From positions 32,001-96,000 of the forward strand of contig CAVXWP010000012.1 in assembly GCA_963765495.1 (NCBI GenBank): a stretch of 64,000 nt of DNA, read 5' to 3'. The stretch comes from Blastocatellia bacterium. Lineage in GTDB: Bacteria; Acidobacteriota; Blastocatellia; UBA7656. The notes beneath the pieces are model-generated. The model made no database searches. It was not told the DNA's origin and worked only from the letters and a program-made list of their open reading frames with translations. The position numbers and the translations under genes are program-made. Below, one piece after another: positions 3,444 through 45,453 of this stretch (position 1 is the first letter of the stretch; each line of letters begins with the position of its first letter).

Positions 3444-3529
3444 GCGATGCGTGATACGTGATGCGTGATCAGAAAACTTGTGAAGCTTGTCAAAAAGTCC
3501 GGCTCACGAATCGCGAATCACGAATCACG
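3444..3529. repeat. Inverted heptamer array element (CGTGATN)n ... (NATCACG)n
   Basis: GCGATGCGTGATACGTGATGCGTGAT at 3444-3469 and TCACGAATCGCGAATCACGAATCACG at 3504-3529, between divergent genes. Confidence 0.75.
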
Positions 3530-4830: not shown

Positions 4831-5451
4831 ATGATGTACAAAATGAACAGACTGGTCGCGGCAATTATCACTATGCTGATCGTCCTCACATCGCTTCCGG
4901 GCGCATATGCTCAGGCAAGCGCGCAGGACCCTAAAGTCAAAGAGGCGAGCGGCGATGACAACTTTGATCCTATCGAGTTTCTCAATCGATTCAAGCTTGG
5001 AATGAGTTACACAGAGGTGCAGAATCTGCTGCCCAAGAACTTTGACCAGGATATCCTCTCATATATCACGACCGACGAAGTCTTCCTGTTAAACGTAGAC
5101 ATACCGGGCCGGGCCGGCTGGAATGCCTCATTCAAATTCGACACGCTGGACGCGGCCATGCGCAGACCGGAGCAACTGGTCGAGGTAAGTTGCGGTGCGG
5201 CGCTTTCGAGCCGCAGTTCCTCTTTTGAATCCCTTGTCCGCCGAGTCGCAGATGTTTTCGGCGAGCCGGATAAGATGGACAAATCCGAAGATCAGATTCA
5301 GCAGGCTGGCTGGAGGGTTTCGGGCGGGTCTGTCCTGACGCTTGAATACTTCGTTGTGCCGAAGGGGCTGGACGGAAAAGATGTGAGCGTTGATTTCGTC
5401 GTAAAGAAAAACAAGCGGGCGAAATCTTCTCCATCAAAAGACATCGCCTGA
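4831..5451 (+). CDS. Hypothetical secreted protein
   Basis: N-terminal signal peptide (AYA cleavage); GAGAGG SD-like sequence; no family recognised. Confidence 0.7.
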   Translation: MMYKMNRLVAAIITMLIVLTSLPGAYAQASAQDPKVKEASGDDNFDPIEFLNRFKLGMSYTEVQNLLPKNFDQDILSYITTDEVFLLNVDIPGRAGWNASFKFDTLDAAMRRPEQLVEVSCGAALSSRSSSFESLVRRVADVFGEPDKMDKSEDQIQQAGWRVSGGSVLTLEYFVVPKGLDGKDVSVDFVVKKNKRAKSSPSKDIA

Positions 5452-5527
5452 ACCGGATCAATTCTGAACCGGATCAATTCTGAACCGGATCAATTCTGAA
5501 CCGGATCAATTCTGAACCGGATCAACT
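5448..5527. repeat. Tandem repeat, 5 x 16 bp (CTGAACCGGATCAATT)
   Basis: Four exact copies plus one with a single mismatch; the first copy contains the TGA stop of the upstream gene. Confidence 0.95.
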
Positions 5528-14663: not shown

Positions 14664-15956
14664 TTACATGCCGCCGCGTTTGTTGAAAAGGCGAAAGGCG
14701 GTCGTGCGAATTACATCGGGAATATTCTTGTTTTTAGAGAGTACGCGCAGGTCGCGCGTTTGAATACGATTGATGAAACCCAGGCTGATCGATATTGGAG
14801 TGCGCGGATTGCGGACCAGATTATGCACTACCACATAAGATCGGGTCCATGCGCGACTGTGACCTATCTGTCTCAGCACCTCTTCGGGAACCGTCCTGAT
14901 CGAAGCGATGCTTTCGACCTCGGTGTCGGTCAAACGCGGATTGCGCAGGACGGCGGAAGCTACTATGCGGTTCGGGTCACGGACCAGAATCAACCTGGCC
15001 TCTCGCGTTCCCTTTATCGCAAGCATTACGCGGTCCTTGATACTCATCAAAGCGATTCGTTGAAAGACGGGCATCCGCTCAGGCAAAGAGTATCCTTCTT
15101 CGCTCCCCATCTCTTTTATTATCTCATCTACGTTGAATTGCTCGTCGGGAGTGGGTGGGACCAGATTAAATGGACCAAACTCGGTTTCGTATTCGGAGAA
15201 GATTAAGGCATCCTGCTCTGCATCCAATCCTTCTTCGATCAGCCCGAGACGCATCAGGTCTTCTATGCCTTCGATAAGGACGCGGGGGCCTGTGTCTGCG
15301 CTGGCAACGCGTTCGGCCTCGGCCTGTGTGCGCGCCCGTTGTTCTTCGGCAACCATCTGCGCGCCAAATTCTTTCTCGAAGAATTCCTGACGGACCTCGT
15401 TTGCGCGGCGTTCGGCTTCGGGCGTCCGGCGCGGATTGGCGAGAATCGCTTCTATAATTTCGGGCGAGCGAATCAGGCTCTGCTGCTTGAGCGATATCGT
15501 TTCGATGATCTGAGGATCGGGGCTTGCGGCTGCGAGTTGGGCCAGGGCTCCGTCCGGCGTCGAATGATTGAAGATTACAGTCTCGACCAGTTGGCGATTA
15601 GCACGCGGCCACAGACACAGGAATCCGAGCACATCAGCGCTTGATTGCGGGTCTGCGGCAAGCTCGATAAAGGAATTGGGATCGAGCCCGTCAACCGTTG
15701 TGGCCGCGATGTCGCGAATCTCCTGGCTCTCATCCGAGAGAAGCGCCACGAGTGCCTGAAGCATCTCTTCGGTTGTAAGCGGAACTATCCCACGGGCAGC
15801 CGCCAGCTTCATCGTCTGCGGAGCCTTGCCCGATACTATTGCTTCTATGATCTTGCTGGAAATGACTATTACTCCCGGTCTGACTGGCGTTCGATTGCAA
15901 AAGGCTATTTGTCTGGCTTTAAGGCAAAGCAAGCTTACTATAATCCGGTTGGGCAT
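14664..15956 (-). CDS. Hypothetical helical-repeat (HEAT/LRV-like) protein; start uncertain
   Basis: Long ORF with repeated NPxTP/NPRL motifs (NHSTP, NPRRTP, NPRLT, NPRTP). Confidence 0.7.
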   Translation of the reverse strand: MPNRIIVSLLCLKARQIAFCNRTPVRPGVIVISSKIIEAIVSGKAPQTMKLAAARGIVPLTTEEMLQALVALLSDESQEIRDIAATTVDGLDPNSFIELAADPQSSADVLGFLCLWPRANRQLVETVIFNHSTPDGALAQLAAASPDPQIIETISLKQQSLIRSPEIIEAILANPRRTPEAERRANEVRQEFFEKEFGAQMVAEEQRARTQAEAERVASADTGPRVLIEGIEDLMRLGLIEEGLDAEQDALIFSEYETEFGPFNLVPPTPDEQFNVDEIIKEMGSEEGYSLPERMPVFQRIALMSIKDRVMLAIKGTREARLILVRDPNRIVASAVLRNPRLTDTEVESIASIRTVPEEVLRQIGHSRAWTRSYVVVHNLVRNPRTPISISLGFINRIQTRDLRVLSKNKNIPDVIRTTAFRLFNKRGGM

Positions 15957-16001
15957 TCAATTACTTTTCCTCGCCGCCCCGAACCTGACAAAAGCTAATT
16001 A

Positions 16002-16030
16002 TTGACAAGAAATACCCCTCATATTAGACT
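16002..16030 (+). promoter_or_regulatory. Sigma70 promoter driving the riboswitch-SLT transcript
   Basis: TTGACA-17nt-TAGACT. Confidence 0.7.
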
Positions 16031-16063
16031 GTCAGGGTCGTAATAAGTTGTTTTGAACTGATA

Positions 16064-16270
16064 CCGATAAAGGCACACCAGGAGCGATCCTGGGTCGCAA
16101 AGCCAAGGCCTTTTGAGGGATGAGGGATGAGGGATGAGTGATGAAAAGGATTTTGAGGAAACATTCCAGTAATTGGTTCAACCCATTTACTGGCTCGCGT
16201 CTTTAGAGTCTTTTTCATCCCTCATCCCTCATCCCTCATCCCTCCGGAGGATGTCTGGCCGCCGAAGTCG
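16064..16270 (+). ncRNA. c-di-GMP-I (GEMM) riboswitch with a large insertion in P3
   Basis: P1 CGAT/GTCG; AAAGGCACAC; P2 CCAGGA-GCGA-TCCTGG; GTCGCAAAGCCA; 3' TGGCCGCCGAA. P3 is extended by a repeat hairpin at 16115-16244. Confidence 0.8.
16115..16244. repeat. Inverted heptamer array (GAGGGAT)n ... (ATCCCTC)n inside the riboswitch
   Basis: GAGGGAT x3 + GAGTGAT on the left, ATCCCTC x4 on the right; the inner spacer carries its own hairpin CCAGTAATTGG/CCATTTACTGG. Confidence 0.92.
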
Positions 16271-16426
16271 AGGTTGAAAACGGCTCCCTCCCGGGTTTTC
16301 AACTCCGCCTGGTTATAGTTCCCCGATGTAGCGAGTCTTGAAATTCGCTTTCAACAAACGGCATCGCAAGTCCCTGCTTTTGCGCTGCCTTTGGCTAAAC
16401 ATCTAGCCCCAAGTATCGGAGGAGAT

Positions 16427-17284
16427 ATGAGGACTCTTATAATCTTGCTCGCAGTGATTCTGGTTGGAGTCACGACGAGCGAAGCTCGCGCGCAGGAAGC
16501 GAGCGAATCTTTTAATGCCGAGGCTGCCGCAGTCCTGAAGCCCACGCCTATGATGGTCGCTTACGGTAACGCGGCTCCGGTTGAGAAAGAGAAAAACAAG
16601 TTACCCGCCACGCCGGACGGCAAAGCAGGATTGGCAAAGGATGGCGCGGGAAAAGATGTTGCCGGAAAAGTCGCCACGGGGAAACCCGATGAAGCAGGCA
16701 CTCAAGCTCCGACTGCTCCGCCGCAACAGCCGGTCATTTTGTCGGCCGCCCGCTCAAATACGCAATCATCGAATGTCCCGCTCCAATCTACGGGCAATCC
16801 CGCCTATGACGACCTGGTGATGAAGGCGGCGGCTCGCCACGGCGTAGACCCGAACCTCATCTTTTCGGTCATGCATCAGGAATCGGGATTTAATCCCCGC
16901 GCCCGTTCCTACAAAGGCGCGTCGGGGCTTATGCAGTTGATGCCGGCGACGGCGCGCCGCTTTGGCGTGACCAATATCTTCGACCCGGCACAAAACATTG
17001 ACGCGGGAGCCCGTTATCTTCGACTCCTGCTCGATATGTTCGACGACGATGTAGAGCTTGCGCTTGCGGGCTACAACGCGGGTGAAAACGCCGTGGTCAA
17101 ATCGGGATTCCGCGTTCCGCGTTATCGAGAGACTCAGGATTACGTGCGTATAATTTCATCCAGATACGGGTCGGATAAGCACAGGGGAAACAAGAAAACC
17201 CCGGCCGGTCCCGTAAAGCCTTCGGCCCCGGCAGCCGTCGCCTTTGGCGCGGGGGCAAGCAGTCGTCTTTCAAACAATTACTGA
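16427..17284 (+). CDS. Lytic transglycosylase (SLT domain), exported
   Basis: Signal peptide; catalytic QES, GLMQL, AGYNAG and ETQDYV motifs; GGAGGAG SD. Confidence 0.93.
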   Translation: MRTLIILLAVILVGVTTSEARAQEASESFNAEAAAVLKPTPMMVAYGNAAPVEKEKNKLPATPDGKAGLAKDGAGKDVAGKVATGKPDEAGTQAPTAPPQQPVILSAARSNTQSSNVPLQSTGNPAYDDLVMKAAARHGVDPNLIFSVMHQESGFNPRARSYKGASGLMQLMPATARRFGVTNIFDPAQNIDAGARYLRLLLDMFDDDVELALAGYNAGENAVVKSGFRVPRYRETQDYVRIISSRYGSDKHRGNKKTPAGPVKPSAPAAVAFGAGASSRLSNNY

Positions 17285-17465: not shown

Positions 17466-19526
17466 ATGCGCAAATCACCACGCAACAAATTAGTAGTAGG
17501 CGTGATTGTCACTGCGCTGGTTTTTTGTCTTTCGGCCCGGCCTACGCTAAACGCGGCTGACCCGGAAGCCTCATCCGCGCACAGCCCGCGTTCGCTTGCC
17601 GAAAACCTGTTCCAGTACGCGACCGGGCTCAAGAAGGCGCTACACGACCGACCGCTTGAAGAGCGGAGCGAAAGCGACTATCTTCGCGCCCTTGACGCAT
17701 ACGGACAGGTAATCAGGCTCAACACCGACTCATTTTTTTCCGCCGAATCGCTTGCGCGCCGCGCAGAACTTCAACGCGAGATCGCCGATGCTACGGGCGA
17801 TTCCGCTCTTTATCTGGAAGCCATAGAATCGTTTCGCAGAATCGTAAACGAACGCCCGCAGAGCACCTTCGTCGGAGACGCGCTGATCAACATCGCTCAA
17901 ATATATGAAGAGAATCTGCAGGACCTGGATGGCGCAGCGGCAGCCTACAAAGAGATGATCGCCCACTTCCCTTCCTCGGTGCTGGCGCGCGAGGCCAGCG
18001 CCGTGCTCGCAAGATTCGAAGCGCACCTCGGCGATCACCCCGTTGATGTTCTGGTCTCTGCCGATCAGACTCAACCAAACGCCAACAGGTTTGGGCCGGA
18101 ACGAGGGGCGCAGCTTACAAACGTGCGCAACTTCACCGGACCCGACTACGCCCGCGTGGTCATAGACCTGTCAAAGGGGGCCGAATACGCGGGCGGGCGC
18201 GCGGGCAACAATCACTTGAGCCTTCGATTGAGCGATGCTCGCATCTCGCCTTCACTCTATGGCCGCCGGTTCATCGTGAGCGAATCGAGTCTTTTGAGAA
18301 GAATAACCGTGGCCGAAGGCGCAAATAATCCTTCGACACACGCTCTCTCGGAAGGGGTGCAGATTGATTTAGAGGTCGCATCGCTTGCGGAGTATTCCAT
18401 CTTTCGGCTGTCAAACCCCGAACGCATAGTCATAGACATTCACGCCGAGGGCGCTGCCTCCGAGCCTCTTTATGTAGCGAGAGGAGGAGCGGCAAACCGA
18501 GGCGTCACCCGTCCTGCCGAAGATGCGGACGAAGAAAATTCCGCGCCCGATGCTTCATCCGGCAACGTGACGGCACGCGCGGGCAGTTCACGCGCGTGGC
18601 GCACGCAGAAACCTCTGTTTGCGCTGCCCGAAATCACCGAGCCTATATTGCCTTACGATCCATCGAGTTCGGCAAGCGGCGCAAGCGGCCAGTTAGAGGC
18701 TAAGATTGACGCAGACCTTTCGCAGACGCCCATCAAATGCATAGTGATTGATCCGGGTCACGGCGGCCACGATACGGGCACGATAAGCTCGAACGGCATG
18801 TGCGAGAAAGACCTTGTGCTCGATGTAGCGCGGCGATTAAAGGCTTATGTCAAACGGAAGTACCCGGATGTCGAAGTTATATTGACCCGCGACAGCGACC
18901 GCTTTGTAGCTCTTGAGCAGCGAACGGCGATAGCCAATTCGCGCCGGGCCGATCTGTTTATATCCATTCACGCAAACGCAAGCCCCTCGCGCGTGGCCTC
19001 CGGCGTAGAGACTTATTTCATGAGTCCCGACCGCGCGCCTGATGAAGACCTTGAGACGGCCAATCGCGAAAACACCAAAATGGCCGATGAGAAGACCGAA
19101 AAACGAGACACCAGCGTCAAGCCCATCGTCGCGAGCGTTTCGGCAGGCGGGCGCGTAGCCGCATCGCGAGAGCTTGCGCGATATATTCAAGCGGGGCTTG
19201 TTCGCGGCATAGGCGCGCAATCTCCGCGCACGGCGGCCAATCGCGGAGTGAAACACGCGCCTTTTGTCGTGCTGCTCGGAGCGGTGATGCCAAGCGTTCT
19301 TGCCGAAATCTCTTTCCTCTCAAATCCACGCGACGAAGAGTTGCTCAAGACATCCGCGTTCCGCGAGCGAATTGCGGCCTCTTTGTTTGCCGGATTGAAC
19401 TCTTACCTGAAGAAGAATCGCCCCGCCGAATCAAGAAACGACGCAAAGAATGACGCAAAGAGCGAGGCGAAAAAAGAGACGAAAAAACCTGACCCGGACA
19501 CAAAGAAAACGGGCAGCGAAGAATGA
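17466..19526 (+). CDS. N-acetylmuramoyl-L-alanine amidase (Amidase_3) with N-terminal TPR and AMIN domains
   Basis: IDPGHGG, EKD, SIHAN and LAE motifs; RVVIDL/RIVIDI AMIN motifs; upstream TAGACT-17-TATAAT promoter. Confidence 0.92.
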   Translation: MRKSPRNKLVVGVIVTALVFCLSARPTLNAADPEASSAHSPRSLAENLFQYATGLKKALHDRPLEERSESDYLRALDAYGQVIRLNTDSFFSAESLARRAELQREIADATGDSALYLEAIESFRRIVNERPQSTFVGDALINIAQIYEENLQDLDGAAAAYKEMIAHFPSSVLAREASAVLARFEAHLGDHPVDVLVSADQTQPNANRFGPERGAQLTNVRNFTGPDYARVVIDLSKGAEYAGGRAGNNHLSLRLSDARISPSLYGRRFIVSESSLLRRITVAEGANNPSTHALSEGVQIDLEVASLAEYSIFRLSNPERIVIDIHAEGAASEPLYVARGGAANRGVTRPAEDADEENSAPDASSGNVTARAGSSRAWRTQKPLFALPEITEPILPYDPSSSASGASGQLEAKIDADLSQTPIKCIVIDPGHGGHDTGTISSNGMCEKDLVLDVARRLKAYVKRKYPDVEVILTRDSDRFVALEQRTAIANSRRADLFISIHANASPSRVASGVETYFMSPDRAPDEDLETANRENTKMADEKTEKRDTSVKPIVASVSAGGRVAASRELARYIQAGLVRGIGAQSPRTAANRGVKHAPFVVLLGAVMPSVLAEISFLSNPRDEELLKTSAFRERIAASLFAGLNSYLKKNRPAESRNDAKNDAKSEAKKETKKPDPDTKKTGSEE

Positions 19527-21600: not shown

Positions 21601-21768
<168 letters not shown>

Positions 21769-21774
<6 letters not shown>

Positions 21775-26018: not shown

Positions 26019-27056
26019 ATGCTTAGGATCGCTGTGGATGCAATGGGAGGCGATCACGCTCCCACAAGCGAGGTCGAAGGAGCCATCGAGGCCGTGCGTG
26101 ACCTCGGTGTTTCAGTAATCCTCGTGGGACGATCCGAAGAGATCAAGACGCAGCTTGAAAAGCACCGCGACGGCCGGGGCAAGAGGGAACACCTGTGGCG
26201 TGATTCGCAAATAGAGATTGTTGATGCGCGCGAGGTCATCACTATGGATGATCCGGTTGCAACAGCCGTCCGCCGCAAACGCAACAGTTCGATTCGCGTC
26301 GCGGCAAACCTCGTGCGTCACGGTGAGGCCGAGGCGCTTGTGAGCGCGGGAAACACGGGCGCGGTGATGATGACGGCAAAGCTTGTGATCGGCACGCTTC
26401 CAAAGGTCGACCGCCCGGCGCTTGCAGCCGTGTTGCCTACTATCACGGGACGAAGCACCGTGTTGCTCGACGTAGGGGCGAACGCCGAATGCAAGCCGTC
26501 GCACCTGCGCGATTTTGCCGTTATGGGATCGCTCTATTCGAGCGTGGTTGTAGGCATTCACAACCCTCGGGTAGGGCTTCTCTCGATTGGCGAAGAAGAG
26601 ATCAAGGGCAACGACCTGACAAAAGAAGCGTTCAAGCTGCTGAAGAGTTCGTCGCTGAATTTTATCGGCAACATCGAGGGCCGCGACATGTGTACGGGGC
26701 AGGCCGATGTGATCGTTTGTGATGGATTCACGGGCAATGTCGCGCTAAAAGTGAGCGAAGGCGTATTCGAATTCATTATGGGCCTGCTCAAACAGGAATT
26801 GAAATCGTCGCTCCAGACAAAGGCAGGCGCAGTGCTTACGCGGCCTGCCTTTCAGCGATTCAAGCAACGGCTGGATTACGCCGAATTCGGCGGCGCTCCG
26901 CTTTTGGGAATCAAAGGCGTCACGGTCATCTGCCACGGACGTTCAACTCCAAGAGCCATTCGAAACGCCATCGCCGTAGCCAGGGATTATTGTCTCGGAG
27001 ATGTCAACGAACGGATCGGACTTGAGATAGGCGTGCCGGTGATCAGTGGTCAGTGA
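26019..27056 (+). CDS. plsX: Phosphate acyltransferase PlsX
   Basis: IAVDAMGGDHAP, SAGNTGA, LDVGAN, DGFTGN, GGAPLLG and HGRS motifs. Confidence 0.97.
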   Translation: MLRIAVDAMGGDHAPTSEVEGAIEAVRDLGVSVILVGRSEEIKTQLEKHRDGRGKREHLWRDSQIEIVDAREVITMDDPVATAVRRKRNSSIRVAANLVRHGEAEALVSAGNTGAVMMTAKLVIGTLPKVDRPALAAVLPTITGRSTVLLDVGANAECKPSHLRDFAVMGSLYSSVVVGIHNPRVGLLSIGEEEIKGNDLTKEAFKLLKSSSLNFIGNIEGRDMCTGQADVIVCDGFTGNVALKVSEGVFEFIMGLLKQELKSSLQTKAGAVLTRPAFQRFKQRLDYAEFGGAPLLGIKGVTVICHGRSTPRAIRNAIAVARDYCLGDVNERIGLEIGVPVISGQ

Positions 27057-27169
27057 TCGGTGGTCAGTGATCGGTGAAAAGACAGGGCGATTATGAAAAC
27101 GAAGAGGTTTAATTTGATGAGCCGGAAAGTTATTACACCTGGCTACCGGCCACCGGCCACCGATCACTG
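27037..27169. repeat. Inverted heptamer array (CRGTGRT)n ... (CACYGRY)n between plsX and fabD
   Basis: Six units at 27037-27077 containing the plsX stop; inverted units at about 27136-27169 ending 3 nt before the fabD ATG. Confidence 0.85.
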
Positions 27170-31777: not shown

Positions 31778-31910
31778 AGGGGGCCGGGGGTCGGGGGCCG
31801 GGGGCCGGTGATTACATATCGGCATATGGTCTAAAATTCTCCAGATGTATTTCAAAAACCGGCCACAGAAAAACAACTACCGGCCCCTGGCCCCCGACCC
31901 CCGGCCCCCT
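31778..31910. repeat. Inverted heptamer array (GGGGGCC)n ... (GGCCCCC)n between etfA and ETF-QO
   Basis: 32-bp arms at 31778-31809 and 31879-31910, complementary except for one G-U pair; AT-rich spacer. Confidence 0.93.
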
Positions 31911-45345: not shown

Positions 45346-45453
45346 GGAAATAGGCCGCGGATGAACGCGGATCAGGCGGATTTACGCGGATCTGACATTA
45401 TTTGATCTAATCTATGTTTATCCGTCTAATCCGTGTCATCCGTGGCCTATTCC
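45346..45453. repeat. Inverted ~9-mer element (..GCGGAT)n ... (ATCCGT..)n
   Basis: GGAAATAGGCCGCGGATGAACGCGGATCAGGCGGAT ... ATCCGTCTAATCCGTGTCATCCGTGGCCTATTCC. Confidence 0.8.

Follow-up and report, generated by a model that had tools for sequence, protein, structure and literature searches.

Evidence for a c-di-GMP-I riboswitch aptamer whose P3 tip carries a dispersed heptamer-hairpin repeat, upstream of a lytic transglycosylase gene

The DNA analyzed here (the window) is a stretch of 64,000 nucleotides from a Blastocatellia bacterium (GenBank assembly GCA_963765495.1, contig CAVXWP010000012.1, positions 32,001 to 96,000 of the forward strand). It contains a gene for a secreted lytic transglycosylase with an SLT domain, and the leader of this gene holds an aptamer of the cyclic di-GMP (c-di-GMP) riboswitch class c-di-GMP-I (GEMM-I). 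The aptamer spans positions 16063–16268 of the window and measures 205 nt, compared to 77 nt for the form with a short P3 stem. Very probably, it is a genuine c-di-GMP-I aptamer in which the tip of P3 holds a copy of a dispersed heptamer repeat, at a site where such repeats land recurrently. The features of the locus are the following:

16002–16030, + strand: sigma-70-like promoter TTGACA-17-TAGACT, a consensus match only (10 of 12 positions)
16046–16062, + strand: upstream strand ("P0", or 5' strand of an extended P1), conserved in alignment A1, that can pair with 16269–16285
16063–16114, + strand: 5' part of the aptamer (Rfam alignment; in 42 orthologues, invariant columns and covariation of P2), with the P1 5' strand at 16063–16066, the G20 junction position at 16072, P2 at 16073–16098, A47 at 16099 and the P3 5' strand at 16101–16114
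16115–16244, + strand: GAGGGAT heptamer-hairpin insert (tandem repeats, fold), with the left arm up to 16144, the core at 16145–16214 and the right arm at 16215–16244
16245–16268, + strand: 3' part of the aptamer (Rfam alignment), with the P3 3' strand at 16245–16260, C92 at 16262 and the P1 3' strand at 16263–16268
16270–16305, + strand: putative hairpin of the expression platform; the loop is C-rich and conserved, and the 3' arm runs into the conserved CUCC at 16303–16306
16418–16429, + strand: Shine-Dalgarno sequence GGAGGAG (16418–16424) and ATG start codon (16427–16429), from the sequence; the GGAG-type context is kept in orthologues
16427–17284, + strand: secreted SLT-domain lytic transglycosylase of 285 amino acids (Pfam SLT, E = 2.8e-30)
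17466–19526, + strand: the next gene, for an AMIN-domain N-acetylmuramoyl-L-alanine amidase (Pfam Amidase_3, E = 3.4e-50), after a 181-nt gap following the SLT stop codon

An initial annotation of the window had placed a promoter at 16002–16030, the two halves of the aptamer core at 16069–16105 and 16256–16270, and the arms of an adjacent hairpin at 16270–16281 and 16295–16305, all ahead of a lytic transglycosylase gene. These strings are present at those positions, the Pfam match identifies the gene product as proposed, and the predicted promoter is the sole promoter-like site in 15850–16500, a region for which shuffled sequences give a mean of 0.6. An orthologue of the SLT protein is encoded in all 53 genomes of the family (probable Blastocatellia), and the protein is 72% identical to that on the closest titled public contig, which belongs to a Blastocatellia metagenome-assembled genome.

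The Rfam model of the variant class c-di-GMP-I-GGC (RF03167) aligns end to end over 16063–16267, skipping 137 nt of P3, with a score of 36.9 bits (E = 3.8e-7 for a search of 15950–16450, 501 nt, at E-value thresholds; the cut-off of the model is 59 bits). This match, which joins both halves of the core, far exceeds chance. Through the Rfam alignment (Vc2 numbering) the contact bases are assigned as G20 = G16072, A47 = A16099 and C92 = C16262, where A47 is a nucleotide that we take to contact the ligand. The window thus carries the three bases canonical for c-di-GMP, in agreement with the class and with the G at the G20 equivalent that had been claimed for it. In 42 orthologous SLT leaders these bases hardly vary: position 20 is G in 41 leaders and A in one, and A47 and C92 are present in 42/42. 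The loop of P2 is of the GNRA type in every one of these leaders (GUGA in 29, GCGA in 12 and GUAA in one; the window has GCGA at 16084–16087), and the conserved base of P3 with its asymmetric internal loop, the region into which the P2 GNRA loop would dock, sits proximal to the insert. By structure and binding site, and not by curated score, the RNA is, as far as its sequence tells, a member of the c-di-GMP-I class.

It is exceedingly unlikely that this aptamer senses 3'3'-cyclic GMP-AMP (3'3'-cGAMP), as GEMM-Ib aptamers do, or an unknown ligand of the kind proposed for variant classes, in place of c-di-GMP. The best local Rfam model is indeed the variant RF03167 and not RF01051, the c-di-GMP-I model, and one orthologue has A at the G20 equivalent. 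However, the RF03167 score lies far under the cut-off, and the GGC variant is presumably defined by a change of A47 to G, at a position where the window (16099) and all 42 orthologues have A; this assignment was rejected. Membership of GEMM-Ib was likewise rejected, as the window has G at 16072 and C at the C92 position and only one of the 42 orthologues has A at the G20 equivalent. According to an excerpt of PMC6140456, the two guanines of c-di-GMP are recognized by G20 and C92, and the cGAMP-sensing members have A at position 20. The single deviating orthologue, the SLT leader L064 (G020:C628), is a candidate cGAMP-sensing or bispecific aptamer in a clade of the c-di-GMP type.

Conservation was assessed at 51 SLT loci, leaving out two genomes with partial best matches. 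An aptamer lies upstream of the SLT gene at 42 of the 51; none was found at the remaining nine, which comprise five genomes of genus g20 (all of that genus), two of genus g14, one incomplete genome and one locus at a contig end. In the alignment of the 42 sequences (A1) the core is almost invariant and the tip of P3 is unalignable. Counting P1, P2, the base of P3 and the platform hairpin, 93.8% of 1422 cells are paired, compared to 24–49% when the partners are slid by 1–3 columns. Ten pairs have changed on both sides, a number reached in 0/500 shuffles (mean 5.6). Two pairs of P2 illustrate this (AU in 33 and GC in 8 sequences; GC in 36 and AU in 5), as does the P3 pair just under the insert (columns 71–307, window positions 16109–16250), which is CG in 25, UA in 16, UG in one and unpaired in none. 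Because the partners of this covarying P3 pair are 30–178 nt apart, the pairing of P3 has been kept in RNAs that bear inserts.

The length of P3 between the conserved flanks varies over the same range, 30–178 nt, in the 42 SLT leaders. In two species P3 consists of 30 nt with a GAAA loop, and it measures 32, 44, 47 and 54 nt in others; in the window it is 158 nt, whereas the short form has about 30 nt. The insert is absent from the orthologues with a short P3, so that the insert-free leaders for which a comparison had been suggested do exist. When searched with RF01051, such orthologues (P3 of 30–44 nt) score 56.8, 54.5, 53.3 and 49.1 bits, above the gathering cut-off of 35, while the window locus gave no match at gathering thresholds in the same run; a whole-genome search gives it 32.6 bits. 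A scan of the whole window with Rfam at gathering thresholds returned 0 matches. The locus thus escapes standard scans, as had been anticipated, and by comparison of these sequences the score shortfall of the window aptamer tracks the insert. Matches of microRNA families to the insert were dismissed: they reflect the long hairpin only, and all are far under their cut-offs.

The public sequence data contain relatives of this leader. None of the 24 public sequencing runs listed contains the stretch; the share of sampled words found in each is about 0.05. In three RNA-library runs and one DNA run there are contigs that match 16063–16112 with 0–1 differences and diverge at 16112, at the start of the insert; other public-run contigs cover the heptamer arm only. 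These contigs derive from relatives, and they are evidence for neither transcription nor habitat of the window locus.

The insert is about 130 nt long and has the composition (GAGGGAT)n, a 70-nt core and (ATCCCTC)n. Tandem Repeats Finder reports (TGAGGGA)4.4 at 16114–16144 with 95% matches and (TCATCCC)4.3 at 16215–16244 with 100% matches. Together with the base of P3 (16106–16255), the insert is predicted to fold into a single unbranched hairpin of -97.5 kcal/mol (z = -13.8), and 0/200 shuffled sequences fold as well. In the fold of the wider region 16045–16312 (z = -9.8) the insert hairpin continues P3 and P2 forms alongside. Both folds bear out the proposal that the insert sits at the apex of P3 and prolongs this stem. 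It starts four pairs past the conserved asymmetric internal loop of P3 and is distal to all invariant positions, which makes tolerance of the insert structurally plausible.

The same element occurs throughout the genome. A scan for exact matches found 76 GAGGGAT/ATCCCTC anchors, 49 of them paired; when one mismatch per unit is allowed, the genome contains 64 two-armed GAGGGAT elements with cores of about 74 nt, and the window insert is one of these. Perfect heptamer arrays of at least 3 copies number 436 and fall into only 39 unit families, the GAGGGAT family accounting for 107. A second count, by period, gave 407 arrays for a period of 7 and 7, 16, 8, 6 and 1 arrays for periods of 5, 6, 8, 9 and 10, respectively. 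Given the genome-wide copies of GAGGGAT and the excess of heptamer arrays, the insert is a single copy of a hairpin repeat that is dispersed and heptamer-specific. Other heptamer hairpins in the window lie at 3446–3529, 21603–21774, 27039–27162 and 31779–31909, with units of the GATGCGT type, GCAGTAG, GTGATCR and GGGGGCC.

Other repeats were observed as well. A second dispersed repeat, with CGCGGAT/CGGAT-like units, is found in the window at 21703–21730 and 45356–45444 and, elsewhere, beside several one-armed GAGGGAT arrays; it often adjoins heptamer hairpins or sits within them. A perfect 16-nt unit in 4.9 tandem copies (window 5448–5525) is unrelated to the heptamer system.

The genome contains four c-di-GMP-I-like aptamers: that of the window and those on contigs C10 (136460–136644), C15 (52363–52568) and C9. 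The aptamers of the window, C10 and C15 have a common core sequence and carry a GAGGGAT element at the identical position of P3 and in the same orientation, and the C15 aptamer reaches 35.3 bits with RF01051. The C9 aptamer differs in the sequence of P2 and P3 and is without an insert. All four are located upstream of genes for secreted or envelope proteins, namely the SLT lytic transglycosylase in the window, a 1598-aa FN3-domain protein on C15, a beta-helix/PKD protein on C10 and a subtilase on C9.

Across the family, a pattern for the 5' core identified 83 sites in 48 of the 53 genomes, and the reversed pattern, used as a control, 0. Of the 41 non-SLT sites examined, both cores are present in 40, and the remaining one is truncated at the end of a contig; a second conserved type of platform is found in most. 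In this second type (L012 and L013, which are the C15 and C10 leaders of the window genome G000, and the type-B leaders of relatives) a hairpin is formed from the P1 3' strand plus GAGAUG...CAUCUC, and the genes that follow encode large secreted proteins of the FN3 or beta-helix/PKD kind. Both platform types keep a GUCCCC motif further downstream.

In the 82 aptamers of this subclass P3 ranges from 28 to 178 nt, with at most 55 nt in 13 and at least 80 nt in 61. Among the latter 61, P3 folds as a single hairpin in 53, has a z score of -4 or below in 42 (mononucleotide shuffles) and shows a tandem-heptamer signal in 44. The units differ between close relatives. Genus g7 has P3 heptamers of the GAGGGAT, GATTTTG and CTGAGTC types; in genus g14 P3 has no insert or one of the GATTTTG, A/T-rich or GAACGAT type; and three types of insert occur among four species of genus g20. 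Patterns for such units are again dispersed: the GATTTTG-type pattern has 22–199 matches in each of five genomes (controls 0–2) and the AAGGCAA-type pattern 4–60 matches per genome (controls 0). Judged from these distributions, the P3 apex is a recurrent insertion site that is occupied by different heptamer hairpins in different species.

As a long P3 is the majority state and its helicity is kept despite complete turnover of the sequence, we considered that the long duplex might be selected for a function of its own on top of that of the riboswitch, for instance as a cleavage site for RNase III, as a protein-binding site or as double-stranded RNA that sets the half-life of the mRNA. The number of single hairpins with a strongly negative z score, and the retention of inserts in all three subclass paralogues of the window genome, agree with this idea. 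Nevertheless, we consider it improbable: the 13 aptamers with a P3 of at most 55 nt include close relatives within one genus, and the same elements are found at unrelated sites, in numbers from dozens to hundreds. Because the element is itself helical, no selection at the window locus is required to explain why the helix persists.

With the dispersed repeat as the source of the insert, its relation to the inserts of the paralogues can be examined. The insert core of the window shares 92% identity with that of the C10 copy, even though the platforms of the two leaders differ; over all 2016 pairs of cores of GAGGGAT elements, identity has a median of 66% and a 99th percentile of 85%. Identity of the C15 core to the window and C10 cores is 76–78%, and the nearest relatives of this core, at 85%, are copies outside riboswitches. 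In 24 within-genome pairs of an SLT-type and an other-type insert the median identity is 0.63, a value somewhat inflated because such pairs share one heptamer family, compared to 0.46 for orthologous inserts between genomes (n = 595) and 0.48 for the 49 same-genus pairs among these comparisons. Twelve of the 24 exceed the 95th percentile of the between-genome pairs, and in one genome the identity is 98% over 149 nt. At the sequence level, this sharing fits a transfer of sequence between paralogous leaders, or one element invading repeatedly, rather than inheritance of an ancestral insertion. A single insertion followed by duplication of the leader was rejected, as orthologues elsewhere carry different inserts or none and the C15 core is nearer to non-riboswitch copies. 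Paralogues probably share inserts through gene conversion or through repeated invasion by one element family. In one genome (G041) the paralogous leaders L048 and L098 have a common nested P3 insert whose innermost core is reverse-complemented between them, which suggests that the core may have been inverted through recombination between the inverted heptamer arms.

For the regulatory part of the leader, the adjacent hairpin proposed as the expression platform is kept in the 42 orthologous leaders (helix 6 of the alignment; 88.7% of its cells are paired, and changes on both sides occurred in 2 pairs). An intrinsic terminator as platform was considered and rejected, as a scan of the leader found no terminator with a U-tract; the platform thus looks translational. 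In the minimum-free-energy fold of 16045–16312, 16046–16059 pairs with 16271–16285, a segment that doubles as the 5' arm of this platform hairpin, and the strand 16046–16062 may act as a competitor in this model. The loop of the hairpin and the tail that follows are rich in C and contain CUCC motifs; these are complementary to the GGAG-type context of the Shine-Dalgarno sequence, which is conserved.

A possible mechanism is as follows. Since the insert lies beyond all conserved or ligand-contacting positions, it would merely lengthen P3, and the three-way junction, the P2 GNRA loop and the base of P3 could still form. Binding of c-di-GMP, if retained by the enlarged aptamer, would stabilize P1 and its upstream extension. 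The P1 3' strand leads directly into 16269–16285, for which the upstream strand 16046–16062 and the segment 16295–16305 would compete. In the ligand-bound state the C-rich loop and the CUCC tail of the platform hairpin would be freed, and the freed CUCC segment could occlude the Shine-Dalgarno sequence as an anti-Shine-Dalgarno. On this model we lean slightly towards a translational OFF switch. Constrained partition-function folding of 38 leaders predicts that blocking P1 raises the accessibility of the Shine-Dalgarno sequence by at least 0.1 in 14 leaders and lowers it in 2, with 22 unchanged.

Several observations weigh against a working aptamer with a tolerated insert at this locus. The scores of the window are below the cut-offs of both Rfam models, RF01051 and RF03167. 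Adjacent to the junction, P1 is limited to four standard pairs, and it is weaker than in most orthologues; the window is among the 3/42 and 4/42 leaders that lack a standard pair at columns 24–326 and 23–327, respectively. The first pair of P3 is A.C, as in 9/42 orthologues. The near-perfect duplex of 24 + 20 bp in P3 could be a substrate of RNase III, and cleavage there might alter the function of the leader. As to the origin of the insert, the greater similarity of the C15 core to non-riboswitch copies leaves a single origin of the three inserts unestablished. The constrained folding supports the OFF direction weakly, and in the window the modeled accessibility of the Shine-Dalgarno sequence is 0.20 in both P1 states, giving no clear direction.

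The low score, the two non-standard P1 positions with the A.C pair at the base of P3, and the equal accessibility with P1 forced and blocked could also be explained if the window copy were a decaying, non-functional relic, disabled by the insert and a weak P1, with the gene expressed constitutively. We regard this as very unlikely, because the copy retains every invariant core position, the three ligand-contact bases and the platform hairpin. Furthermore, the core is kept in the 61 of 82 subclass aptamers that have a long P3, with a P3 pair that covaries across the inserts; the A.C variant is common to nine of the 42 orthologues; and in the minimum-free-energy fold the long upstream helix (16046–16059 with 16271–16285) compensates for the weak P1. 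The preferred reading therefore remains that of a genuine c-di-GMP-I aptamer with a dispersed repeat at the tip of P3.

The aptamer resembles c-di-GMP-I (RF01051) members of the GNRA-on-P2 type in its three helices, its G20/A47/C92 triad, its GNRA P2 loop and its position in the leaders of secreted or envelope genes. It differs in the extension of P3 by a repeat, in a score below the gathering threshold and in the lack of an intrinsic terminator here.

For the insert, the closest parallel may be the short tandemly repeated repetitive (STRR) heptamer sequences that Vioque reportedly described in 1997 in helix P12 of the RNase P RNA of heterocyst-forming cyanobacteria. There the tandem heptamers are said to lengthen a peripheral helix and to be dispensable for activity, and close strains are said to carry unrelated repeats at the same helix. 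Tandem dispersed heptamers likewise lengthen a peripheral helix here (P3), with unrelated units among close relatives (genera g7, g14 and g20), and the RNase P RNA of the window genome also has a repeat-like insertion, of 34 nt, in a hairpin loop. The differences are the phylum (probable Acidobacteriota), a riboswitch in place of a ribozyme, and inverted arrays around a core of about 70 nt. An excerpt of PMC2858038 describes P12 of RNase P RNA as sometimes dispensable and cites the 1997 study for this.

The RNase P RNA gene itself (L127 1501–2003; G000:C1:530752–531254) is 503 nt long, compared to 367 positions in the model, and scores 268.8 bits. Its insertion is A/T-rich and lies in the hairpin loop that comes first in the Rfam model, with further non-repeat insertions elsewhere, and it resembles small palindromic inserts in the riboswitch P3 of some relatives.

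REPINs, repetitive extragenic palindromic (REP) sequences and miniature inverted-repeat transposable elements (MITEs) share with the present elements the dozens of dispersed, mostly intergenic copies, the strong hairpin potential and the sequence families within a genome. Unlike in these, the arms here consist of tandem heptamers, and heptamer families of many kinds occur side by side. A link to the REPIN/RAYT system was rejected: the genome has two Y1-transposase genes (RAYT-type, PF01797), and no GAGGGAT-family array was found within about 1.5 kb of either. Within this distance, one gene has no array of at least 17 periodic bases (about 2.4 copies) and the other has one 2.7-copy array with a different unit. 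The direct heptamer repeats TAACTGA of Beggiatoaceae, Cyanobacteria and Bacteroidetes are, in the excerpted text of PMC4679880, mostly intergenic and often in 5' leaders, with essentially one unit and a single inverted case reported there. As far as that excerpt goes, they share the heptamer-specific tandem arrays with the window genome, which differs in having many units and inverted arrays that form hairpins. A literature search, which extended to few subscription journals and to no supplements, returned no report of heptamer hairpins in Acidobacteria/Blastocatellia and none of a riboswitch stem that holds a repeat or a mobile element.

A more speculative view, which we find possible although we would not expect it to hold, is that the P3 apex acts as a structure-specific hot spot for the integration or templating of undescribed STRR-like heptamer hairpins of probable Blastocatellia. 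Such elements would prefer hairpin loops that already exist as places to enter or grow, would be replaced more quickly than species separate and would spread between paralogous riboswitches by gene conversion. If so, riboswitch stems would keep a trace of the activity of a new kind of DNA, mobile or self-templating, that targets hairpins.

Taken as a whole, the locus indicates that aptamers of a well-studied riboswitch class can reach almost three times their usual length and fall under curated thresholds while the core is still under purifying selection. As aptamers with a long P3 can drop below these thresholds, riboswitch censuses in repeat-rich phyla are probably undercounts. The finding raises the questions by which route heptamer hairpins reach hairpin loops and whether gene conversion operates between paralogous leaders. 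In addition, heptamers in a peripheral helix, as reported from cyanobacterial RNase P RNA, are here seen in a different phylum and in an RNA with a regulatory role. The 82 aptamers of the family, with their unrelated inserts, constitute a natural tolerance experiment that defines the part of the c-di-GMP-I fold accepting arbitrary helical extension, which is useful for engineering.

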